Of a DNA stretch of 38,287 nucleotides, positions 4,679 to 37,774 are shown piece after piece. Each line of letters begins with the position of its first letter. Positions within the stretch are counted from its first letter, which is position 1. Position numbers and translations under genes: made by a program. The stretch comes from Pseudomonadota bacterium. Lineage in GTDB: Bacteria; Pseudomonadota; Alphaproteobacteria; JAAXGF01. The stretch lies in the NCBI GenBank assembly GCA_022563655.1, contig JADFMW010000002.1, forward strand, positions 1 to 38,287, written 5' to 3'. The notes under the pieces are model-generated. The model did not search any database, was not told the DNA's origin, and saw only the letters and a program-made list of their open reading frames with translations.

Positions 4679-6040
4679 CTAGATCGCCGCGCGCTGCGCC
4701 TCGCCGGGCAGCGGCACCTTGACGCCTTCGTCGATGTACTGCCTGAGCTTGTTGCGCAGGGTGCGGATCGAGATGCCAAGGATATTGGCGGCGTGGGTAC
4801 GGTTGCCGAGGCAGTGGCCGAGGGTCTCGATGATGAGGTCGCGCTCGACGGCGGCAACGGTGCGCCCCACGAGGCCGCTCGCCGGATGGGCCGCCGCCCC
4901 GGAAGCGCCTGCGTAGGTCGGCGCCGCGGATGCCGTGTGCCCGCCGTTGCCGAACGTGACCGCCTCGGCGCCGATTTCGTCGCCGCTCGCGAGCAACACC
5001 GCGCGGTGTATTGTGTTCTCGAGCTCGCGCACGTTGCCGCGCCACGTATGGCGCAACAAGGCGTCGCGCGCCGCCGGCGCCAGCGGTCGCTCGGGCAGCC
5101 CGTTGGCCTGGGTGTATTTCTTGATGAAATGCCGGTAGAGCGGCGGAATGTCCGCGGGGCGCTCGCGCAGCGGCGGGATGTGCAGGTTGACCACGTTGAG
5201 GCGGAACAGCAGATCGTCGCGAAAGGCGCCCTTCGCCACCTCGGCCTCGAGGTCGCGGTTGCTCGTGGCAATCAGGCGGATGTCGATCTTGATCGGCTTG
5301 CTGCCGCCGACGCGGTCGATTTCGCGTTCTTGGAGCACGCGCAACAGCTTGGCTTGCATGCGTGGCTCCATCTCGCCGATTTCGTCGAGCAGCAGGGTTC
5401 CGCCGTTGGCCTCCTCGAACTTGCCGATGCGCCGCGCCACGGCGCCGGTGAAGGCGCCCTTCTCGTATCCGAAGAGCTCGGATTCGAGAAGGTTGTCTGG
5501 GATGGCGGCGCAGTTGACCGGGACGAAAGGCTGCTTGGCGCGGCGGCTGTGGCGGTGCACGAAGCGCGCGAAAAGCTCCTTGCCGGTGCCCGATTCACCG
5601 GTGATCAGCATGCTCGCGTTCGACGGCGCGACCTGCTCGGCCAGGCGCAGCAGCTCGGAGGTGGCGGCGTCGGCGTGGATGATGGTGTGGCTGTCCTCCG
5701 CCACCGCCTCGAGAACGGCGGCGATCAACTCGGCCTGAGGGGGCAAGGGGATGAACTCGCGGGCGCCGGCCTTGATTGCCCGCACAGCGGTATCGCTGTC
5801 GGTGCCGACGCCGCAGGCGACCACCGGCACGCTGATGCGCTCGGACCTCAGGCTGGCGATGAACCTCGCGATGTCGAGCTTGACGTCGACCATGACCAGC
5901 TCGGCTCCCTGGCCCATGCGCAGCGTCGCCAGCGCGGCGTCGATGTCATCCGCGTGGCCGACCTTCGCGCCCCGATCGAGGGCGATCTTGCTGGCGGCGC
6001 CGATTTCACCCCCAATCGGGCCAACTATCAGTAACCGCAT
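4679..6040 (-). CDS. flbD: Sigma54-dependent flagellar transcriptional activator FlbD (atypical receiver + AAA+ + HTH)
   Basis: AAA+ Walker A GESGTGKE, GAFTGA sigma54-contact loop, ESELFGYEKGAFTG, RGNVRELEN, and C-terminal HTH CLGNRTHAANILGISIRTLRNKL. The receiver lacks the N-terminal acidic pair (LLIVGPIGG), as in Caulobacter FlbD. ATG 6040 is preceded by AAGGAG; the ORF track starts one codon earlier at GTG 6043. Confidence 0.9.
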   Translation of the reverse strand: MRLLIVGPIGGEIGAASKIALDRGAKVGHADDIDAALATLRMGQGAELVMVDVKLDIARFIASLRSERISVPVVACGVGTDSDTAVRAIKAGAREFIPLPPQAELIAAVLEAVAEDSHTIIHADAATSELLRLAEQVAPSNASMLITGESGTGKELFARFVHRHSRRAKQPFVPVNCAAIPDNLLESELFGYEKGAFTGAVARRIGKFEEANGGTLLLDEIGEMEPRMQAKLLRVLQEREIDRVGGSKPIKIDIRLIATSNRDLEAEVAKGAFRDDLLFRLNVVNLHIPPLRERPADIPPLYRHFIKKYTQANGLPERPLAPAARDALLRHTWRGNVRELENTIHRAVLLASGDEIGAEAVTFGNGGHTASAAPTYAGASGAAAHPASGLVGRTVAAVERDLIIETLGHCLGNRTHAANILGISIRTLRNKLRQYIDEGVKVPLPGEAQRAAI

Positions 6041-6160
6041 CACGCTTCTCCTTACAAACCGCCGATCGTTGCGCTGACTAACCGGCCTCCTGCGCGCGCC
6101 GGAGCGGCGGCGGGATGACGCCCGGCGCCGCGGGTTGCTGGAGGCATCGCAGCCGGCCGG

Positions 6161-14506: not shown

Positions 14507-14544
14507 TACGGTATCCCCTGATGACAATCCTGGCCTTCGCTAAA

Positions 14545-14559
14545 GCAATTCGCGGGCCA
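14545..14559 (-). promoter_or_regulatory. Sigma54 (-24/-12) promoter of the fliK-flgD-flgE hook operon
   Basis: The gene strand reads TTGGCCCGCGAATTGCT, i.e. TGGCCC-N5-TTGC with exact GG-N10-GC spacing, about 39 nt upstream of GTG 14506. Confidence 0.65.
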
Positions 14560-14663
14560 ACTCGGGGATCGCGCTAACATGTTGAAATTGATTGTTCTTT
14601 TCTGGAGCCGCGGGCCGTGCCCGGACACAGGCAGGTGCCGTTGGGTAATCCCTGCTGGGGCGG

Positions 14664-14678
14664 CGGCAGTTTGTGCCG
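14664..14678. promoter_or_regulatory. Dyad CGGCA-N5-TGCCG, candidate FlbD enhancer (ftr-like) for the hook operon
   Basis: CGGCAGTTTGTGCCG is a perfect 5+5 dyad centred about 115 bp upstream of the sigma54 element at 14545-14559. Confidence 0.45.
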
Positions 14679-18528: not shown

Positions 18529-19725
18529 CTACTGCAACAGCCTGAGCAGGTTCTGCGGGATCTGGTTGGCCTGGGCCAACATCGCCACGCCAGCCTGCAA
18601 CAGCACTTGCTTGCTGGTGAAGTTGATGATCTCGGAAGCGATGTCGAGGTCCATCAGAGTGCTCCGGGCCGCCTCGGCGTTCTCGATCGACGAGGCCAGG
18701 TTGGCGGACGCGAACTCGAGCCGGTTCTGGCTCGCGCCGATGGTCGCCCGCGACTGGTTGAGGGTGTCGATGGCGCTCGCCAGCGCCGTGATCGACGCGT
18801 TGGCGTTCGAGCTGGTGGCGCCGCTGATGACCGAGGCGCTGACGCCAAGGGCGGACGAGGTGACCGAATCGATCGTGAACGACAGATCGTCTTCCGTGGA
18901 GATGGTGCCCGTCCCCACCTTGAACGTAACGGTCGTGCCGGCGGTGCCGGTGAGGGTGATCGTCGAGTCGGTGGTCGCGTACGTATCGGCCGCCGAGTTG
19001 AACGCGGTGTTCAACTGTAGCGTGATGGTGCCGTTCTCGGTGGACGAGTTGTTGGTCAGCACGACCACGGTGCTGGTGAGCAACGCGTTGGCGCCCGCGC
19101 CGCCATTGAGAGCAGTCGCATCGATCGTGCCGGTGTAGGCGGTGCCGCCAACGGTTATCTCGAAGATGTTGGTGCTGGCGGTGTAGTTGGCAGTCGTCGA
19201 GGCGGCGGCGGTGATCCCGGTGGACGAGATCGACTCGACGCCGTCGCTGACGGCAAAACCAGCACCCGCGCCGGTACCGGCGGCCGTCTCCGAACCGCTG
19301 ACCCCGCCTTGCGTGAGCTTGGTGCCGTTGAACTCGGTGTCGTTCGCGATCCGGTCGATTTCCGACCGCAGCGCCGTGAACTCGCTGTTCAGAATGGCCC
19401 GCTCGGTAGTGCCGAGCTGGTCGGATGCCGCTTGCGTGGCCAGCGACTTCATCCGCACCAGGATGTCCGCCACCGTGGCCATCGCGCCGTCGGCGACCTG
19501 CAACATCGAGGATGCCTGGCCGGTGTTGACGTTGGCCTGCTTGAGGGCCTCGACCTCGGCCCTGAGGCGCGATCCGACGGCCAGTGACGCGGCGTCGTCC
19601 TTGGCCGAAACCACGCGCGTACCTGCTGAGAGCTTCGACAGCGAGGACGTCACCTGCATGTCGGTCCGCGCGAGGTTGCGGTGGGCGACGTTCGCCGCGA
19701 AGTTGGAAATAATGTTAAGAGCCAT
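18529..19725 (-). CDS. fliC: Flagellin
   Basis: N-terminus MALNIISNFAANVAHRNLARTDMQVTSSLSKLSAGTRVVSAKDDAASLAVGSRLRAE and C-terminus NRLEFASANLASSIENAEAARSTLMDLDIASEIINFTSKQVLLQAGVAMLAQANQIPQNLLRLLQ are canonical D0/D1 segments. The central domain is Ser/Thr/Gly/Ala-rich. TAGGAGAA precedes the ATG. Confidence 0.95.
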   Translation of the reverse strand: MALNIISNFAANVAHRNLARTDMQVTSSLSKLSAGTRVVSAKDDAASLAVGSRLRAEVEALKQANVNTGQASSMLQVADGAMATVADILVRMKSLATQAASDQLGTTERAILNSEFTALRSEIDRIANDTEFNGTKLTQGGVSGSETAAGTGAGAGFAVSDGVESISSTGITAAASTTANYTASTNIFEITVGGTAYTGTIDATALNGGAGANALLTSTVVVLTNNSSTENGTITLQLNTAFNSAADTYATTDSTITLTGTAGTTVTFKVGTGTISTEDDLSFTIDSVTSSALGVSASVISGATSSNANASITALASAIDTLNQSRATIGASQNRLEFASANLASSIENAEAARSTLMDLDIASEIINFTSKQVLLQAGVAMLAQANQIPQNLLRLLQ

Positions 19726-19821
19726 GACTAAGTTCTCCTACTTGGATTTACGAGGTTGGCGTCATGCCAGTGCGCGCCGCCTCCGCTTCGGGGACGAAAC
19801 GCGCTTCTCGCCGTGCTTTGT

Positions 19822-19837
19822 TGCAAGCTGCGGGCCA
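19822..19837 (-). promoter_or_regulatory. Sigma54 (-24/-12) promoter of the flagellin gene
   Basis: The gene strand reads TTGGCCCGCAGCTTGCAA, i.e. TGGCCC-N5-TTGCA with exact GG-N10-GC spacing, about 97 nt upstream of ATG 19725. The core is nearly identical to the fliK promoter. Confidence 0.65.
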
Positions 19838-19866
19838 ACCGTGCCAAGGGCGTAGTTTCAACGGCT

Positions 19867-19980
19867 TAGCCGGGGTCCGCGGCGCCCGGCCGCGCCTGGA
19901 CCGGCAAAAATTTCCGCCGCTTGTCGAATGTTGCCCGGCAAAAGCTGCCGCCCTGCGCGGCCCCGACCGCGGCCCGCTCG
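19867..19980. repeat. Direct repeat copy A (114 bp) containing two GGCA-N5 dyads; upstream activating region of the flagellin promoter
   Basis: Matches 25362-25474 in the same orientation with 3 substitutions and 1 single-base indel (aligned by eye). Contains CGGCAAAAATTTCCG (19902-19916), CGGCAAAAGCTGCCG (19936-19950) and a GGTCC...GGACC hairpin-capable segment. Confidence 0.85.
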
Positions 19981-20353
19981 ACGGCCCGGAGTTGCCCGGC
20001 GAGGAAAACAAGCAACAAGACATCGACGCTCTGCTGGCCGGGCTTGAATGAGCGGCTGTGGAAAAGGCCTGGAACCCAAGCGACAGGAAACGCGCGGCCC
20101 CCCGGCCTTCGTCCTGCTCATCCTGTTGAGCCGCACTTAGCGAATAGTAGCGATGTCTCAACAGGCTAGCCGACAGAACTTCAAGCTCAATCGCTCCGCC
20201 GCGTTGGCAGAGTGGCGTCAACTCGCCGCGTTAGAGTCTTGACCGCCCCGACCTACCAGCTCACGCCCAGTTAATCTGACAAAGCCCCACGAACGCATCA
20301 AGCAGGAAAACCTCGCGGCGGCGGCGGCGACGACGGCTTGCTGGCCGGAGACC

Positions 20354-20398
20354 AAAAAGACTGCGAAGAAAAAGACTGCGAAGAAAAAGACCGCTAAG
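20354..20398. repeat. 15-bp tandem repeat x3 (aaaaagactgcgaag, aaaaagactgcgaag, aaaaagaccgctaag)
   Basis: Read directly. In one plus frame it encodes KKTAKKKTAKKKTAKPL-stop, but that frame (open from 20243) has no ATG, GTG or TTG. Confidence 0.8.
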
Positions 20399-20418
20399 CC
20401 GCTCTAAACCCCTCTCCC

Positions 20419-20434
20419 TTAAAGAGTTATTAAG
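20419..20434 (+). promoter_or_regulatory. CtrA-type box TTAA-N7-TTAAG upstream of the flhB-C-like/fliO/fliP block
   Basis: ttaa-agagtta-ttaag has exact TTAA-N7-TTAA spacing. It lies 80-125 nt upstream of the candidate start codons at 20514 and 20544. Confidence 0.45.
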
Positions 20435-20543
20435 CATACGGCTGCGATACTCCGCGCACAGTCGAAGGCCGAAACCTCTATCGGCCCGGGCCCTGCAAAG
20501 AGTTATCCAGGCCATGAGCGCATCGCTCGCGCCACGACCCAAA

Positions 20544-20857
20544 ATGACGCTCGCCGTCGCGCTCGCCGAGGGTGCTTCAAACCATGACGAGAGTCCCCGT
20601 GTCACGGCGACGGCCGGGGCGCCGTGGCCGAGCAGATCATCGCCATCGCTCTCGACCATGGCGTCAAGCTGCGCGAGGACGCCGACCTGGCCGGGGTCCT
20701 GGCGGCGCTCGACATCGACAGCCCCATACCCCTCGGCGCCCTGAGCACGGTCACCGGAATCCTGAGCTATGTTCACCGCGCCAGAGGCGCGCCCGATAAT
20801 TGCGCCAGAGGCGCGCCCGATGATTCCGCCATGGACAATTCGGAGGACGCTCCATGA
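20544..20857 (+). pseudogene. FlhB C-terminal-domain-like small protein (YlqH/FhlB family) with an apparent -1 frameshift near 20607-20612
   Basis: Frame 0 gives MTLAVALAEGASNHDESPRVTA. Frame 2 continues (D)GRGAVAEQIIAIALDHGVKLREDADLAGVLAALDIDSPIPLGALSTVTGILSYVHRA. Joined, these follow the family pattern AVAL.Y......P.V.AKG.G..AE.I...A.EH.IP..ED..L...L..LD....IP..LY..VAEI..FV across the break. Confidence 0.6.
20778..20825. repeat. 24-bp tandem duplication at the 3' end of the FlhB-C-like gene
   Basis: gcgccagaggcgcgcccgataatt followed by gcgccagaggcgcgcccgatgatt, encoding ARGAPDNC/ARGAPDDS. Confidence 0.85.
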
Positions 20858-21186
20858 TGACTGAAGATCTCAAACCGGTGGAGCTCAAGGCCCGGCTCGC
20901 CGAGGCGAGCGCCACCATCGATGTGGCGCGCCGCGCCCTGAACGACGGCAAGGTCGTCAGTCTCGACGGCCTCGAGGCCCATGTGGATATCACCTGCAAG
21001 GGGATCATCGCCCTGCCGAAGGCCGAGAGCGAGGTATTGCAGCCGCCGATGCTGGCGCTGATCGACGGCCTCGAGCAGCTTTCCGGCGCGCTCGGTCAGG
21101 ATCATCGTGAAACCCAGGACGCCCTCAACACCCTGAACGACCGCCAACGCGCCCAGTCGGCTTATGCAAAGAACAGCAGGGGCTGA
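20854..21186 (+). CDS. Hypothetical 110-aa soluble helical protein in the fliO/fliP operon
   Basis: Its ATG overlaps the upstream stop (ATGA) and fliO follows 30 nt later. I recognise no family. Confidence 0.55.
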   Translation: MMTEDLKPVELKARLAEASATIDVARRALNDGKVVSLDGLEAHVDITCKGIIALPKAESEVLQPPMLALIDGLEQLSGALGQDHRETQDALNTLNDRQRAQSAYAKNSRG

Positions 21187-21215
21187 CCGCCGTGCGTCAT
21201 AGCGGTTCCTGAACC

Positions 21216-21524
21216 ATGGACCTGGACAGTTACTTCCGATTCCTGGCGGCGCTGGTCCTGGTGATCGCGCTGATCGGCGCGGTCGCCTGGGTGGTGCGCA
21301 GATTTGGCCTCGCCGGGCGGTTGCCGTCGATCGGCGGGCGGACCGCGCGCCGTCTCGGCGTGGTCGAATACATGACGCTCGACCCCAAGACCCGCCTGGT
21401 GCTCATACGGCGCGACGACACCCAGCATCTGCTGCTGCTGGGCGCCGCCGGCCCGGTCGTCGTCGAACGGGGCATCGAGGCGCTGCCCGAACCCGAAACA
21501 ATCAAGGCGGAGGCCGCCGAATGA
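21216..21524 (+). CDS. fliO: Flagellar biosynthesis protein FliO
   Basis: 102 aa with a single TM helix (FRFLAALVLVIALIGAVAWVVRRF) followed by LGVVEYMTLDPKTRLVLIRRDDTQHLLLLG, the FliO pattern. Its stop overlaps the fliP start. Confidence 0.8.
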   Translation: MDLDSYFRFLAALVLVIALIGAVAWVVRRFGLAGRLPSIGGRTARRLGVVEYMTLDPKTRLVLIRRDDTQHLLLLGAAGPVVVERGIEALPEPETIKAEAAE

Positions 21525-22273
21525 TCCGCAGATTCTCCACCCTGTTCTGTCTTTCGGCCGTTTGTCTGATTGTCCTGGCGACGATGGCGACGCCGGCAGT
21601 GGCGCAATCCTTCTCGTTCGACATGGGCGACGCCGGCGGCAGTTTCACCGGGCGCATCATCCAGCTTCTCGTCCTCATGACGGTCTTGACCCTGGCGCCG
21701 TCGATCCTGGTGGTGGTGACCTCATTCACCCGGATCGTGGTGGTGCTGTCGATCATCCGCAGCGCCCTCGGCCTGCAGCAGACCCCGCCCAACGCGGTGC
21801 TCATAAGCCTGGCGCTGTTTCTCACCGCCTTCATCATGGCGCCGACCTTCGAGACCGCCTATGTCAACGGCATCGAGCCGCTGATCAACGAAGAGATTTC
21901 CGAGGAAGAGGCCTTCGAGCGCACCGTGGCGCCGGTCCACGGCTTCATGATGCAGCATGTGCGCGAGAAGGACCTGGCGTTGTTTCTCAACATCGCCGAC
22001 GAGCCGCCGCCGGAAAGCGCCGCCGATGTGCCGCTCAGGATCCTGGTGCCGTCCTTCATCATAAGCGAACTCAAGCGCGCCTTCGAGATCGGCTTCCTGG
22101 TGTTCATACCCTTTGTCATCATCGACATGGTTGTCGCCTCGGTGCTCATGCCCATGGGCATGATGATGCTGCCCCCGGTGATGATCTCCCTGCCGTTCAA
22201 GCTGATTTTCTTTGTCCTAGTCGACGGCTGGTATCTGATCACCGGCAGCCTCGTGCAAAGTTTCAGCGTCTGA
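21521..22273 (+). CDS. fliP: Flagellar export apparatus protein FliP
   Basis: LTLAPSILVVVTSFTRIVVVLSIIRSALGLQQTPPNAVLISLALFLTAFIMAP, SELKRAFEIGFLVFIPFVIIDMVVASVLMPMGMMMLPP and PFKLIFFVLVDGW are canonical FliP/SctR motifs. Confidence 0.95.
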   Translation: MIRRFSTLFCLSAVCLIVLATMATPAVAQSFSFDMGDAGGSFTGRIIQLLVLMTVLTLAPSILVVVTSFTRIVVVLSIIRSALGLQQTPPNAVLISLALFLTAFIMAPTFETAYVNGIEPLINEEISEEEAFERTVAPVHGFMMQHVREKDLALFLNIADEPPPESAADVPLRILVPSFIISELKRAFEIGFLVFIPFVIIDMVVASVLMPMGMMMLPPVMISLPFKLIFFVLVDGWYLITGSLVQSFSV

Positions 22274-22276
22274 TCC

Positions 22277-24793
22277 ATGAACAGGGCGGAGAAACGTCGC
22301 CAAGAGAAGCTGGCGCGGAAGGCCGCGAAGAAACCCCGCGTCGTTTCGCTACGTCCCGGAGAACAGGCCGCTGGCGGCGTCCCCGAGGACTATCTGGAGG
22401 AACTCGCGAGCAAGGGGATTCAGCTCCATCTGGCGGGTCGGGTGCAGGACGCGGAGAACATCTATCGCCAGATTCTCGAAATCGATCCCGATCACGCCGA
22501 TGCCAATCACCTGCTGGGCGGCTTGGCCTGTCAGGCCGGCAACCCTGCGCAGGCCATCGGGTTGATCTCCAAGGCGATCGTCAGGGCGCCCGATCGGCCG
22601 CTGTATCACTTCAACCTGGGAACCGTGTACCAGAGCCTGGAACGATTGGCGGAAGCCGTCGACAGTTGCCGAAACGCCCTCGCCCTCAAACCCGATTACG
22701 CCGAGGCGCATTTTGGCCTGGGAATGTCGCTCCACGGGCTGGGGCGTTTGGAAGACGCCACCGCCAGTTACCGCCAGGCCCTCGCCGTCAAGCCCGACAA
22801 CGCCGTGACCCACAACAATCTCGGCGCCGCCCTTCAGGGTCTGGGGCGGATGGATGACGCCGTTGCCTGCTTTCGCCGAGCCATCGCCCTCGATCCCGGC
22901 TACGCCGAGGCGCACGGCAATTTGGGAAATGCCCATCTGGAAATGGGGCGGATGGAAGACGCCGTGGCCAGCAACCGGCAAGCGCTCGTCCTCGATCCCG
23001 ATCTGGTCGAGACCCATAGCAATCTGGGAAACGCGTTTCAGAAACTGGGCCGCTCCGAGGACGCCGTCGCCAGCTATCGCCGGGCCATCGCCCTCCAGCC
23101 GGACAACGCCAAGGCGCACAGCAACCTGGGAAACGTCCTGCAAGGCATGGGGCGTTTAGAAGACGCCGCCGCCAGTTACCGCCAAGCCCTCGCCGTCAAG
23201 CCCGATAACGCCGTGATCCACAACAATCTCGGCGTCGCCCTTCAGGGTCTGGGGCGGATGGATGACGCCGTTGCCTGCTTTCGCCGAACCATCGCCCTCC
23301 AGCCGGATTTCGCGGTCGCCTGGAATAACCTCAAGTCCGCGACCAAGGCCGTCCAGTATGCGGACGGGCGGCTGGTCCAAAACCGGGACCGGCATCTGGC
23401 CGGGCTTGGCGACGCCGCCCGCGCGACCGGCGAATTCGCCATGCTCGAATATTCTCTGGCGGCGTTCAGACCCCATCGGGCCGACGGCGGCTTCCATAAG
23501 GCGACGGCGGGCCTGCCGCCCCGCGATGACGAAGACGTCGTCATCGATCGTGTTTCTGACGCCGACCGGCCGTCGGGCGGGCCGCCGGAACTTTCCGAAA
23601 ATCTCATCGCCCTGCTGCATTTCGGACGCAGCGGGACCGGGCTGCTCCATAGCCTGATCGACGGCCACCCGGAAATTTCGACGCTTCCCGGCATCTATCT
23701 TCGCGGTTACTTCAACGCCGGCGTCTGGCAGACGCTCAGCGCCGGCGGCTGGCGGGAATTGCCCGACCGGTTCGCCGATATGTTCGAGGTTCTGTTCGAC
23801 GCCTCCTCCGCCAAGATCACCCCCGGTATTCTGGGGGAGAAAATCGCCAATTTGGGCGTCAAGGAAGGCATGACCGCAGTCGGGGAACATCGTGACGAAT
23901 CACTGTCCCTGGATCGGGAAACATTCCGCGCCGAAACCCTTGGACTGATGCGCCGGCTCGACAGGGTCGATCCCATGTCATTCCTGCAAATCGTTCACGC
24001 GGCCTATGAAAAGATCCTGGGTGCGACCACTCACAAGCAGACGATGTTCTACCACATCCACGATCCGGAAAATTTCACCAAACTCAATTTTCTGCGCTAC
24101 GCCCCCGACGCCCGGCTGTTGATGATGGTTCGCGAGCCCATCCAGTGCTGCGAATCATGGCTGCGGGTGCCGTTCGCCGACAACGACTATGGCCAGGTCG
24201 CCGATAAAATCATCAACATGCTGTTCGCCATCGACCAGGTTCCGTTCCGCGTCCGGGATTCGGTGGGGGTGCGTCTGGAGGATTTGAAAAACCGGCCCGA
24301 GGACACCATGGGCGCCCTGTGCGCCTGGATGGAGGTTGGCGAATCCCCGAGCCTCTATGAGATGACCGCCCAGGGAAAGAAATGGTGGGGCGATCCGTCG
24401 AGCCTCGATTACGGGAAAGACACGGCCCTCTCGCCGTTCGGCAAATCTTCCGTGAAACGCGCCGTCGGTTCGATATTCAGCGCAACGGACCAGTTGGTGT
24501 TGGGCACGTTGTTCTATCCCTTCAGCGTGCGGTTCGGTTACCGCGAGCCCGATCAAGCCGGGTTTGAACGGGACTTGCGGAAGATCAGACCGTTGTTGGA
24601 CGGTATGCTGGATTTCGAGAAGGCGATGGCGGAACGGTCGAACAGGGATCACGACGCCTTCAAGGCCGGCGGCGCCTACCGCCTGCTTCGCGCGGGCCTA
24701 TTGGAGCGCTGGGAGGTTCTCGATGAATTGGGCGATTACCCCCATATGCTGACCCCGCTGGTCCCGCCCGACACCGGAAAGACCGACACATGA
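22277..24793 (+). CDS. TPR-repeat / sulfotransferase fusion protein (838 aa)
   Basis: About nine 34-aa TPR units span aa 40-350. The C-terminal half carries the sulfotransferase 5'-PSB loop FGRSGTGLL (nt 23621-23647), the 3'-PB motif VREPIQCCES (R-x-P-x5-S, nt 24128-24157) and VRLEDLKNRPEDTMGALCAWMEV. It starts 4 nt after the fliP stop. Confidence 0.85.
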   Translation: MNRAEKRRQEKLARKAAKKPRVVSLRPGEQAAGGVPEDYLEELASKGIQLHLAGRVQDAENIYRQILEIDPDHADANHLLGGLACQAGNPAQAIGLISKAIVRAPDRPLYHFNLGTVYQSLERLAEAVDSCRNALALKPDYAEAHFGLGMSLHGLGRLEDATASYRQALAVKPDNAVTHNNLGAALQGLGRMDDAVACFRRAIALDPGYAEAHGNLGNAHLEMGRMEDAVASNRQALVLDPDLVETHSNLGNAFQKLGRSEDAVASYRRAIALQPDNAKAHSNLGNVLQGMGRLEDAAASYRQALAVKPDNAVIHNNLGVALQGLGRMDDAVACFRRTIALQPDFAVAWNNLKSATKAVQYADGRLVQNRDRHLAGLGDAARATGEFAMLEYSLAAFRPHRADGGFHKATAGLPPRDDEDVVIDRVSDADRPSGGPPELSENLIALLHFGRSGTGLLHSLIDGHPEISTLPGIYLRGYFNAGVWQTLSAGGWRELPDRFADMFEVLFDASSAKITPGILGEKIANLGVKEGMTAVGEHRDESLSLDRETFRAETLGLMRRLDRVDPMSFLQIVHAAYEKILGATTHKQTMFYHIHDPENFTKLNFLRYAPDARLLMMVREPIQCCESWLRVPFADNDYGQVADKIINMLFAIDQVPFRVRDSVGVRLEDLKNRPEDTMGALCAWMEVGESPSLYEMTAQGKKWWGDPSSLDYGKDTALSPFGKSSVKRAVGSIFSATDQLVLGTLFYPFSVRFGYREPDQAGFERDLRKIRPLLDGMLDFEKAMAERSNRDHDAFKAGGAYRLLRAGLLERWEVLDELGDYPHMLTPLVPPDTGKTDT
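22741..23304. repeat. Near-identical 156-bp intragenic duplication (22741-22896 and 23149-23304, period 408 bp = 4 TPR units)
   Basis: Direct comparison of the two segments shows only a handful of substitutions. The proteins read GLGRLEDATASYRQALAVKPDNAVTHNNLGAALQGLGRMDDAVACFRRAIALDP and GMGRLEDAAASYRQALAVKPDNAVIHNNLGVALQGLGRMDDAVACFRRTIALQP. Confidence 0.9.
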
Positions 24794-25005
24794 ACAAGGA
24801 ATTGCTCTGCACCCTCGGACCGGCCTCGATGAACGATCGGGTGATCGGTCGCCTGACGGAGCTCGGCGTGGCCCTGTTCCGCATCAATCTGTCCCATACG
24901 GCGCTTAAGCCGGGCGAGCCGCTTCCCGACTGGTTCATGCGCGACGTCGTCCAGGATGTGCTGCGCGGCAGGATCGAGGCCGGCGGCGATGTCTTCGTCC
25001 CCTGA
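24790..25005 (+). pseudogene. Pyruvate-kinase-like N-terminal fragment (71-aa ORF)
   Basis: KELLCTLGPASMNDRVIGRLTELGVALFRINLSHT resembles the pyruvate kinase N-terminus (K.vcTiGPas...e.l..l...Gm.v.R.NfSHg). Similarity then ends, and the ORF is about one-seventh the length of a pyruvate kinase. Its ATG overlaps the sulfotransferase stop. Confidence 0.4.
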
Positions 25006-25219
25006 CGGCTGCCCGGTCTTCTGGTTTACCGGACTGTCGGGGGCGGGCAAGACCACGGCCGCCGAATCCGTATCGGTCATACTGGCGCAAAGGGGGTTGA
25101 CCGTCGTCCTCTTCGACGGCGACGAGGTGCGCCGGCGCCCGAACGGTTCATCAACGAACCCCTGTGGCCCGAGTTCCAGGAGCTCAATCAGGTCTTGGTG
25201 GACTATCCGTCACAGTTGA
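24989..25219 (+). pseudogene. Adenylylsulfate (APS) kinase CysC-like N-terminal fragment
   Basis: MSSSPDGCPVFWFTGLSGAGKTTAAESVSVILAQRGLTVVLFDGDEVRR matches the APS kinase start (v.WlTGLSGsGKsT.a..l...L...g....lLDGDnvR), with the P-loop at nt 25031-25057. Similarity stops near 25137 and no frame continues the family pattern. Confidence 0.55.
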
Positions 25220-25361
25220 CGGAACGTATCATTCGCGAGGAAGTCTTCTCACAAACGTCTGAAGCCCAGGAGGTGGACGAGCCCAACGACTTCCGGGTTG
25301 ATGCTGGAATTCACATCACCATCGATGCCGCGCACATTCACTTTTGGCCTTGTGGCTTGGG

Positions 25362-25474
25362 TAGCCGGGGTCCGCGGCGCCCGGCCGCGCCTGGACCGGC
25401 AAGAATTTCCGCCGCTTGTCGACTGTTGCCCGGCAAAAGCTGCCGCGCTGCGCGGCCCCGACCGCGGCCGCTCG
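25362..25474. repeat. Direct repeat copy B (113 bp), immediately 3' of fliW; same dyads as copy A but no adjacent sigma54 promoter
   Basis: See copy A. The dyads are CGGCAAGAATTTCCG (25397-25411) and CGGCAAAAGCTGCCG (25431-25445). I found no GG-N10-GC element in the 100 bp to its left. Confidence 0.85.
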
Positions 25475-25509
25475 CCGCGCCGCCCGGCGCCGATGCGCGG
25501 CCGTGAAGC

Positions 25510-26052
25510 CTATGAGCCGGTTTCCGTGAGTGGGTAGCGCACGGGGTAGCGTTCGCTGGCCAGCACGTGCTGGACGCCGACCCGGCTGGCGGTGTCGAGC
25601 AACAGCGGCGCGCGCAGGTTGGCCGAGACGAGAACGCCCGCGGCCGTCTTGTGCACCGTCACCACCAGCAAGACGGCGAGGTCCTCGGCCGCGATCGACA
25701 GGGCCTCGCAGGACGCGGCCAGATCGGCCGCGGCGATGACGCCGCTTTCCGGATCGAGGGGCAGCACCAGGAACGACAATTGGTGATCGTCGAGGCACTG
25801 CAGCACCTTGAACTGCGGTAGGCGGGGATCGGCGAGGTCGGCAAGCGCGTAGCTGTGGAGATCGCCGAAGCCGAGCAGTCCTCGCGGGAACTCGACCGCG
25901 TTCTGCGGCCCGATGGCAAGGGTGCCGAAGCGGCTTTCGATGACCAGCCGGTGCTCGCCGGAGGCGGGCGCTTGGCCGCTTGGCCGCGTTAAGTTCGCTG
26001 TCGCATCGGCAGCGGTTCCGACAACGGCGTCAACGGCGTCTACTTGGTACAT
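25510..26052 (-). CDS. fliW: Flagellar assembly factor FliW (flagellin-binding protein; CsrA antagonist in other phyla)
   Basis: IESRFGTLAIGPQNAVEFPRGLLGFGDLHSYAL...FKVLQCLDDHQLSFLVLP...ANLRAPLLLDTASRVGVQHVL follows the FliW/DUF180 pattern (F..Gl.GF...f.l......f..LqS.....sF.v..P ... NL.aPi.in.....g.Q.vl). There is an N-terminal extension of about 35 aa. Confidence 0.8.
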   Translation of the reverse strand: MYQVDAVDAVVGTAADATANLTRPSGQAPASGEHRLVIESRFGTLAIGPQNAVEFPRGLLGFGDLHSYALADLADPRLPQFKVLQCLDDHQLSFLVLPLDPESGVIAAADLAASCEALSIAAEDLAVLLVVTVHKTAAGVLVSANLRAPLLLDTASRVGVQHVLASERYPVRYPLTETGS

Positions 26053-26108
26053 GGCTCGACCTTTCGTTACGGGTGTGAGGAGGGTAGGGGCGCACGCATG
26101 GCCGGGCG

Positions 26109-27011
26109 CTAGTTAAGGAAGTCGACCAGCGAGAGGTTGCTCACGCGGGCGAGGGTGAGGAACGAGGCCTCGAGGATGAGCTGGTCGCTCGCGAGCCGCG
26201 TCACGGTGGCGGGGATGTTGACGTTCTCGATGTCGCTGATGACCTGCTCGATGAAGGTGAGGTAGTCGCCGCTCCTGAGGTCGGCCTGCTCGATCGTCTT
26301 GAGGTCCGAACCGATCTCGGTGCGGTACCCAGCGAGCGCCTGGATGGCGTTGCTCGCAAGGCTTAGCGCCGAATTAAGCAGGCTGGTGTTGTTGGTGTTG
26401 GCGCCCTCGATAGCCGCCTTCAACGCCCCGATCGCCTGCTGGAACGCCAAGCGGTCGGCGGTCATGCCGTAGGTGATGGTGGTGGTTTCGTCGATCCGCG
26501 CCGCGAGCTCGACCGAGTCGCCGCTGTAGTAGTTGGTGTCGACGACGCCGAAGACGGCCGGGTCGGGCAACGGCGATTGGACGGGCCGGGTGGTGGTCTG
26601 CGTACCCGCGAAAATGAACCGGCCGTCATCCTTGGTGTTGAGCGCCCCGGCAACCATGTCGAGCAGGTTCTGGGCCACCGTCGCGACCGGTACTGCGCCG
26701 CCGGAGGACGCATTGAGCGCCTGGAGAAGCATCACGCGCAGTTCGCTGACGGCGTCGAAGATGGTCGAGACCGCCGAGTCCATGCGCTCGAGGCGGCGCT
26801 CGATGGTCGTGTTGTTCTTGATGAAGCGGTCGATCCGGGTGTGCAGGCCCTTAAGCGAAACCAGCTGGCTCGCGTCCTCGGCGATGCCGGCGTAGCTGAG
26901 CGACCTCCTGCCGGTGGCGATCTGGATCTGGGCGTTCTGCACCCGCTCCTCGGCGCTGAGAATGTTCCTCAGCGTGAGAGTCTGCTGCGCGATTTGGCTA
27001 ACCCGGCTCAT
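26109..27011 (-). CDS. flgL: Flagellar hook-filament junction protein FlgL (HAP3)
   Basis: 300 aa with flagellin-like termini (MSRVSQIAQQTLTLRNILSAEERVQNAQIQIATGRR ... TVTRLASDQLILEASFLTLARVSNLSLVDFL). It lies directly after flgK. Confidence 0.85.
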   Translation of the reverse strand: MSRVSQIAQQTLTLRNILSAEERVQNAQIQIATGRRSLSYAGIAEDASQLVSLKGLHTRIDRFIKNNTTIERRLERMDSAVSTIFDAVSELRVMLLQALNASSGGAVPVATVAQNLLDMVAGALNTKDDGRFIFAGTQTTTRPVQSPLPDPAVFGVVDTNYYSGDSVELAARIDETTTITYGMTADRLAFQQAIGALKAAIEGANTNNTSLLNSALSLASNAIQALAGYRTEIGSDLKTIEQADLRSGDYLTFIEQVISDIENVNIPATVTRLASDQLILEASFLTLARVSNLSLVDFLN

Positions 27012-37605: not shown

Positions 37606-37672
37606 GTCATCTTTCCTCGCCATTATGTCGTGCCGCTCGGGTGCTTGCGCACCGCGTGGCGTGACTCGTGCT

Positions 37673-37687
37673 GCACGCGTCGTGCCA
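37673..37687 (-). promoter_or_regulatory. Sigma54 (-24/-12) promoter of flgF-flgG-flgA-flgH
   Basis: The gene strand reads TTGGCACGACGCGTGCAG, i.e. TGGCAC-N5-GTGCA with exact GG-N10-GC spacing, about 68 nt upstream of ATG 37605. Confidence 0.6.
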
Positions 37688-37759
37688 ATGTGAAAATTCA
37701 GCCCTAGTAAGGACTTGCCCAAGAGCGGCGGGCCCATGGGCGGCACGTCGGTGGCACGG

Positions 37760-37774
37760 CGGCAGCCGTTGCCG
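37760..37774. promoter_or_regulatory. Dyad CGGCA-N5-TGCCG, candidate FlbD enhancer for the flgF operon
   Basis: CGGCAGCCGTTGCCG is a perfect dyad about 80-95 bp upstream of the promoter at 37673-37687, in the flgF/fliL divergent region. Confidence 0.45.

Follow-up and report, generated by a model that had tools for sequence, protein, structure and literature searches.

In the flagellar gene cluster of an alphaproteobacterium (Pseudomonadota bacterium, GTDB lineage JAAXGF01), two nearly identical direct repeats stand between the genes for FliW and flagellin, and the genes enclosed by the repeats run on the strand opposite to that of the neighboring operons. The locus lies in a 38,287-nt stretch of DNA that was analyzed at full length (GenBank assembly GCA_022563655.1, contig JADFMW010000002.1, positions 1 to 38,287), here called the window, whose source is marine-sediment metagenomes from several studies. 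This arrangement raises the question of what the repeats are and how the enclosed block came to separate fliW from flagellin. The answer favored here, with considerable confidence, is that an insertion of about 5.4 kb, made up of flagellar and sulfation genes in decay, brought with it a copying of part of the DNA upstream of flagellin. The repeats are a rearrangement scar made from the flagellin control region, not a mobile or dispersed element.

The repeats and the flagellin control region

Copy A of the repeated unit occupies positions 19867–19983 and copy B positions 25362–25478, neither with an assigned strand. Their alignment bears out the 113/114-bp near-identical pair described in the original prediction, with three substitutions (19908 A/G, 19928 A/C, and 19952 C/G) and one 1-nt indel near 19975. 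Similarity between the copies ends sharply at 19866/25361 and fades gradually around 19983/25478. The pair (family D5, 97%) is the sole long near-identical dispersed repeat in the 38-kb window. On the minus strand, Pfam domains identify flgF, flgG, flgA, flgH, flgI, a rod-binding gene, an flgN-like gene, flgK, flgL, and fliW (25510–26052, PF02623) on one side of the interval. Past the interval, the same strand carries the flagellin gene (18529–19725, Flagellin_N and Flagellin_C), fliD, fliS, fliK, flgD, flgE, fliF, fliG, fliN, and the gene of an FlbD-type sigma-54 activator. All readable genes between the repeats are on the plus strand, namely an FlhB-C-like gene, orf110, fliO, fliP, a TPR-sulfotransferase gene, and fragments of pyruvate-kinase-like (PK) and adenosine 5′-phosphosulfate (APS) kinase genes. 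GC skew, which had been proposed as a check, flips across the interval, as expected of an inverted block.

The closest relative found (Logan contig L001; FliW 93% identical, DNA 95% identical) carries, in contiguous order, flgK, flgL, and fliW, then a short spacer with a single unit behind it, and finally some 140 nt that hold the promoter and leader and run up to the flagellin ATG. The left flank of this single unit corresponds to the outer flank of copy B, and its right flank corresponds to the outer flank of copy A. Thus, the window is the L001 arrangement opened, with a unit on each side of the opening. In three more distant relatives (L003, L093, and L121), flagellin directly follows fliW with no gene between them, and in all four relatives fliW is followed by a single unit or a homologue of it, and then by a sigma-54 promoter with flagellin behind it. 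Copy B begins 31 nt past the fliW stop, a gap that matches the spacing in the uninterrupted relatives. This synteny comparison, also suggested beforehand, reveals an alternative, uninterrupted arrangement in relatives and upholds one of the origins originally considered, insertion with duplication of the flagellin upstream region.

Two further origins named at that stage, membership in a dispersed repeat family and descent from the upstream region of a lost second flagellin gene, are extremely unlikely. Nothing apart from the repeat itself speaks for either. A 21-mer shared without change by copy A, copy B, and the L001 unit had no match in 185,579 species (one genome each) or in JGI metagenome contigs, collections from which this species is absent, which indicates that the unit is local to this intergenic region and is not a dispersed element. 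The window holds two copies, not the many copies at unrelated loci that would mark a REP-like family. A tblastn search with flagellin against 19984–25361 gave a best E of 1.3, so that no flagellin remnant was found in the block; a tandem array would place a second gene or its remnant after the second upstream region, and L001 has a single unit. A structured RNA was likewise considered for the unit. Rfam gave no match in 19000–26500 or 20100–20350, and folding of both strands of both copies was not better than that of shuffled sequence, which makes such an RNA unlikely. The window contains no tRNA.

The unit and its surroundings have the features of a control region. A sigma-54 promoter for flagellin (TGGCCCGCAGCTTGCA, 19822–19837, minus strand) lies outside copy A and matches the consensus at 11/11 positions, as a perfect TGGCCC-N5-TTGCA judged against TGGCMC-N5-TTGCW. 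This promoter is kept in L001, L093, and L121. Copy A contains two dyads, CGGCAAAAATTTCCG and CGGCAAAAGCTGCCG, which are 34 bp apart (19902–19950) and are predicted FlbD-type activator sites. The same pair is present in copy B (25397–25445). Read on the flagellin strand, the dyads of the unit are CGGCAGCTTTTGCCG and CGGAAATTTTTGCCG, 34 bp apart (CGGCA-N5-TGCCG), and they lie 65–115 bp upstream of the flagellin sigma-54 promoter. They are kept in L001, L093, L003, and L121, with the L093 pair (CGGCAAGATTTGCCG and CGGCAGAATTTGCCC) again 34 bp apart. In both L093 and L121, the dyads are followed by a TGGCCC-N5-TTGC promoter (TTGCA-ended in L093) and then by a conserved ATCCAAGTAGGAGAA ribosome-binding region.

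The same combination recurs at other flagellar promoters. Only two sigma-54 promoters in the window match at 11/11 positions, those of flagellin and fliK (14544–14559), and a 10/11 match lies ahead of flgF. The dyad pattern CGG[CA]A-N5-T[GT]CCG has six matches in the 38 kb, two each in copies A and B and one each at fliK and flgF. The fliK dyad is approximately 105 nt upstream of the fliK promoter, and the flgF dyad is approximately 75–100 nt upstream of the flgF promoter. Every one of the six dyads thus either precedes a sigma-54 promoter (that of flagellin, fliK, or flgF) or belongs to copy B. An NtrC-family activator of the FlbD type is encoded with the flagellar genes (4679–6043, minus strand; Response_reg, Sigma54_activat, and HTH_8), downstream of fliF-fliG-fliN, and FliX is also found in the flagellar cluster. 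The dyads shared among sigma-54 promoters and the nearby FlbD homologue are the grounds for reading the unit as the flagellin enhancer, a putative upstream activating region with two predicted FlbD-type dyad sites. Copy A probably still serves the flagellin gene in this capacity, and copy B is an orphan. When metagenome contigs were scanned with a degenerate form of the enhancer pattern, 54 of the 55 matches were due to chance, mostly without a sigma-54 motif, and L121 was the sole true relative.

The operons fliK-flgD-flgE and flgF-flgG each have a sigma-54 promoter with one dyad 75–120 nt upstream (window 14544–14678 and 37672–37774). The start codon annotated for flgF (37746) was probably placed too far upstream, by about 50 codons.

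The enclosed block and its source

Judged by sequence likeness, the block represents a csrA-flhBc-orf110-fliO-fliP-TPR-sulfotransferase-ATP-sulfurylase-APS-kinase cluster in a second copy that has decayed, to which a cheZ piece and an insertion sequence (IS) remnant of the IS6 family are joined. An intact cluster is present on a 476-kb contig of another organism (L091). It comprises genes for an FlhB-C-like protein (114 aa), orf109, fliO, fliP, and a TPR-sulfotransferase (836 aa), and continues with a PK/PUA/ATP-sulfurylase fusion (720 aa) and APS kinase. Next to these, on the opposite strand, are the genes of a large TPR protein, motB, a 226-aa gene, cheZ, and cheY. The window is colinear with the L091 cluster over 20419–24905 and 24911–25134. 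In L089 (3284–3550) and L090 (6603–6839), csrA lies directly upstream of flhBc-orf-fliO-fliP, divergent from flgB-flgC-fliE-fliQ-fliR-flhB. The flhBc-orf-fliO-fliP core is widespread, occurring in Sneathiella, Kordiimonas, Dongia, and other Alphaproteobacteria, and in those genomes it never lies less than 10 kb from fliW or flagellin.

Some features of these clusters deserve mention in their own right. The fliP, TPR-sulfotransferase, sulfurylase fusion, and APS kinase genes of L091 (8228–15010) are on one strand, with their stops and starts overlapping or abutting. Such contiguity ties a module that makes 3′-phosphoadenosine 5′-phosphosulfate to the flagellar export operon and would fit sulfation of a flagellar component. 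The CsrA proteins of L089 and L090 have an acidic, proline-rich C-terminal tail. The flagellar regions of L003, L004, L091, L095, and L096 are rich in IS elements (IS1595, IS110, DDE_Tnp_1, IS66, and Mutator-type), and in L003 an IS element sits between flgL and fliW.

From the copy A side, the block opens with 19969–20165 (plus strand), which contains a cheZ-like 3′ end (ending in QQDIDALLAGLE, with the stop at 20049–20051) and its downstream flank. The fragment resembles the 3′ end of a small unannotated open reading frame of L005 that is positioned like the annotated CheZ of L091; it is presumably cheZ, given this position and its C-terminal peptide (QQDIDALLAGLE). The same 197 nt occur at 93% identity and in a different context in another contig of run X2. 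An IS6-family remnant of 119 nt follows (20168–20286, plus strand), internal to the block and consisting of the last approximately 23 transposase codons and a probable right end. It matches the C-terminus of annotated IS6 transposases. Its depth reaches 5565 in run X3, and other contexts diverge past 20286. About 50–110 nt of this remnant also have a summed depth of several thousand in sediment metagenomes and recur in metatranscriptome contigs, which suggests an IS family that is abundant and expressed in these communities.

Past the IS remnant, 20287–20410 (plus strand) is a frameshifted 3′ remnant of csrA. Homology to L089 starts inside its csrA, and tblastn recovers CsrA residues 41–88 in two frames. 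The KKTAK-repeat reading frame, which the original prediction had listed as edge debris, is indeed debris, now recognizable as this csrA remnant read out of frame. A TTAA-N7-TTAA box (20419–20434) lies upstream of the FlhB-C-like gene (20514–20857, plus strand; Bac_export_2). This gene is inactivated by a 1-nt deletion, and the frameshift noticed earlier is real, as one C of the intact 114-aa L091 homologue is missing not only in the window but also in contig L085, which is independent of it. It is followed on the plus strand by orf110 (20854–21186), fliO (21216–21524), fliP (21521–22273), and the TPR-sulfotransferase gene (22277–24793), the sole clearly intact gene in every version of the block. 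The TPR-sulfotransferase contains five 102-nt tandem TPR units (window 22612–23313); in L092 (272–2380) it has 702 aa, four units shorter than the 838-aa form of the window and L085. Remnants of the PK/PUA/ATP-sulfurylase fusion and APS kinase genes occupy 24790–25134 (plus strand). Approximately 1.95 kb of the fusion gene is deleted at 24905/24911, and APS kinase ends at 25134. The right edge is a gene fragment (25135–25361, plus strand), the one oddity of the block for which the related clusters do not account. Its matches are to the C-terminal portions of short proteins that mostly carry no annotation, although a GT2 domain is present in one.

The arrangement is reproduced in independent assemblies. 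L085, a 55-kb k141 contig that is 99.9% identical to the window, reads fliW, copy B, block, copy A, and flagellin. It spans both copies, which argues that the arrangement is not an assembly artefact, and together with the Pfam layout it corroborates the opposite-strand block reported originally between fliW and flagellin. Assemblies L086 and L092 also cover the copy B junction. Logan k=31 contigs break at a 41-nt stretch that is identical in A and B, with ends at 19896 and 25391 and starts at 19878 and 25373. Such breaks are expected at this stretch and are no argument against the order.

These assemblies also reveal a polymorphism in the population. A 1339-nt segment (20770–22108, plus strand), which comprises the end of flhBc, orf110, fliO, and fliP codons 1–196, is missing in L085, L092, and contigs of four runs from four studies, where an ATGCT filler is found instead. 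The deleted form has no orf110 or fliO and only a 48-codon fliP stub. It is the main population in the four runs and is dominant in X2 and X3. In X1, contig depth is 8.9 for the deleted form, about 7–10 for the full form, and about 11–20 for the flanks; the corresponding values in X2 are 46.8, 12–23, and 59–76. In both runs these depths add up, and block-bearing genomes with the full segment probably exist. Approximately 20713–22235 of the window is 97–98% identical to an L091/L089-type organism, compared with 76–86% elsewhere in the block. Differences between the window and L085 are confined to positions beside the deletion junction, where the window has the L091 state. Either interspecies recombination or a chimeric assembly could account for this L091-like stretch.

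A second fliP was sought in X2 and X3 with a segment of the window at 80% likeness. Another flhBc...fliP locus, approximately 83% identical and aligning with window 20615–20724 and 21635–22273, was found on a 2815-nt contig of X2 (depth 56) and a 455-nt contig of X3 (depth 57), and these contigs have the same depth as the window backbone. This locus is probably the native fliOP copy of the organism, a link made by depth alone. P0126 (L095 and L096) was rejected as the native FliP cluster, as it belongs to another, IS-rich organism and fails to match the X2 contig's fingerprint. The conserved parts of the block are nearer to the L091 type than to the presumed native fliP, which makes it more plausible that the DNA was acquired, or has long been separate, than that the native locus was copied recently.

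How the duplication arose

In the favored scenario, the ancestral locus would have contained the fliW stop, a short spacer, the unit, the sigma-54 promoter, a leader of approximately 85 nt, and flagellin. A segment of at least 5.4 kb would have joined this intergenic region in opposite orientation and left the 113–117-bp unit at both sides. The incoming segment may already have been a rearranged second copy of the cluster, with the cheZ 3′ piece and the IS6 element attached. Copy A, beside the promoter, would have retained enhancer control of flagellin, and copy B would have been orphaned behind fliW. Later decay includes truncation of csrA by the IS, loss of most of the IS, the frameshift in flhBc, the internal deletion of the sulfurylase gene, truncation of APS kinase, and, in most genomes, the removal of 1.3 kb (orf110, fliO, and most of fliP). 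Of this history, the data demonstrate that a native target was duplicated, what the block is, that it has decayed, and that it is polymorphic in the population; the role of the unit as an enhancer and the mode of joining are proposals.

The favored mode of joining is break repair or replication template switching, which may have acted at short microhomologies, with the target staggered or re-copied. Both junctions have short overlaps, as the cheZ-derived sequence begins at or before 19969 and the unit extends to about 19983, and GGCTT adjoins both left ends of the unit. Transposition was examined and is not favored. A transposon would be recognized by a target duplication of about 2–14 bp, terminal inverted repeats, and a transposase near the ends. 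Here, the duplication is 113–117 bp, the block has no terminal inverted repeats, and the only trace of a transposase is the internal 119-nt IS6 remnant. Single-crossover integration of a circle carrying a copy of the unit is an alternative mode.

Several observations count against insertion into an enhancer. Target duplications as long as 113 bp are unusual, and more than one mechanism fits the evidence. The count of two copies derives from the window itself and from scans, all negative, of collections in which this species is not represented. The RNA runs contain only the IS6-like fragment and almost nothing from this organism, which bears on the enhancer. The likeness of the dyads to the ftr sites of Caulobacter is presumed from architecture. 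Finally, copies A and B differ by 2.7% and the two lineages by approximately 5%, and it is conceivable that recombination between the copies removed the block from the L001 lineage.

The last point underlies an unlikely rival, in which the block and its two repeats predate the split from L001 and L001 lost the block by homologous recombination between the copies. Each copy differs from the L001 unit at 3–4 positions, which, relative to the 5% divergence, points to a duplication that is not very recent, and at the three variable sites the L001 unit agrees partly with A and partly with B, as a recombinant would. Only three sites are informative, however, and such a mixture is also expected from shared ancestry. 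Moreover, L003, L093, and L121 have the simple arrangement, which means that an earlier insertion with duplication is still needed and that this rival shifts only the timing. Quite unlikely, too, is a large tandem duplication with ends at the left edge of the unit and in a distant, oppositely oriented fliOP region, followed by deletion of the duplicated flagellar genes, which spared only the distal block between two units. Such a history would enclose a relocated segment in direct repeats of any length and leave debris at its inner edges, as is observed. Against it, the block would have to derive from the organism's own cluster, whereas the other fliP at backbone depth (X2 and X3) is only 83% identical, compared with 97% between copies A and B, and the conserved parts of the block are nearer to the L091-type organism (86–92%). 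A deletion of more than 20 kb ending exactly so that the enhancer is left would be required as well.

An assembly artefact, in which the genome really reads fliW-unit-flagellin and the block lies elsewhere or is circular, is very improbable. At k=31, both joinings of the flanks fit the data, with the breaks falling in the 41-nt identical stretch. This stretch is shorter than the read length, however, and the k141 assembly of another sample has the same order. The ends of the block are also joined to the unit in single contigs on both sides, and the X2 depth is even over the block and its flanks. Insertion with copying of the flagellin upstream region remains the preferred account.

The repeats had also been expected to allow excision of fliOP. 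In principle this could happen, but an excised form was not observed, and the k=31 contigs are blind to it, as a crossover within the 41-nt identical stretch makes no new words. In most sampled genomes, the block is already without fliO or an intact fliP, and excision between the repeats would remove mostly dead genes.

Implications and comparison with known systems

The insertion with duplication accounts for the odd gene order without a new element and offers a clean natural case of an insertion into a promoter region that is tolerated because the enhancer was duplicated. Comparison alone has yielded a conserved two-dyad enhancer and sigma-54 flagellin promoter, both predicted, in poorly known marine-sediment Alphaproteobacteria, a group that combines control of the Caulobacter type (CtrA/FlbD/FliX) with control of the FliW/CsrA type. 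For annotators, fliO and fliP of the window are part of a second copy in decay, already lost by most strains, and they cannot be assumed to form a working export gate.

More speculative, and improbable, is that the copies and the block form a working unit or that the locus records a rescue of fliOP across species. As a working unit, the block could be reversibly removed and restored between the copies, recoupling fliW and flagellin, or flagellin expression could be tuned by copy B, either as an additional FlbD site at a distance or as a decoy. In the rescue variant, a strain with the 1.3-kb deletion might have been repaired by homologous recombination with the DNA of another species. If true, a gene for flagellar export would have been rescued across species in nature.

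Among known systems, IS6/IS26 rearrangements share with this locus an IS6 transposase remnant that adjoins the truncated csrA and a block that is a patchwork of truncated genes. Unlike in those rearrangements, the remnant lies 184 nt inside the block instead of at its edge, and a second IS copy is not present. IS6 elements make 8-bp target duplications, compared with 113–117 bp here. Insertions with long target duplications, whether by single crossover of a circle or by microhomology template switching, share the native direct repeats and the short junction overlaps; they differ in that the present analysis turned up neither a circular form nor an integrase or a donor molecule.

The FliW-CsrA-flagellin systems of Bacillus and Campylobacter also have fliW directly upstream of flagellin and after flgK-flgL, and CsrA is present in relatives of this organism. 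The original prediction had likened the locus to the Bacillus order, with the block in place of csrA. This likeness does not hold in detail, as none of the relatives checked (L001, L003, L093, and L121) has csrA between fliW and flagellin. The native csrA instead sits upstream of flhBc-fliO-fliP, and the csrA piece of the window is a truncated passenger of the block.

The closest parallel in regulation is the way Caulobacter crescentus controls its late flagellar genes through FlbD, ftr, and FliX (PMC3930126; PMC3096577). The two organisms share a -24/-12 TGGCCC-N5-TTGC promoter with dyads about 100 bp upstream, an FlbD gene that closes a fliF-fliG-fliN operon, and the presence in the cluster of FliX and of boxes of the CtrA type. 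Unlike Caulobacter, this organism combines the scheme with fliW, and its relatives combine it also with csrA. The predicted enhancer, moreover, is present here in two copies, one beside the flagellin promoter and one orphaned.

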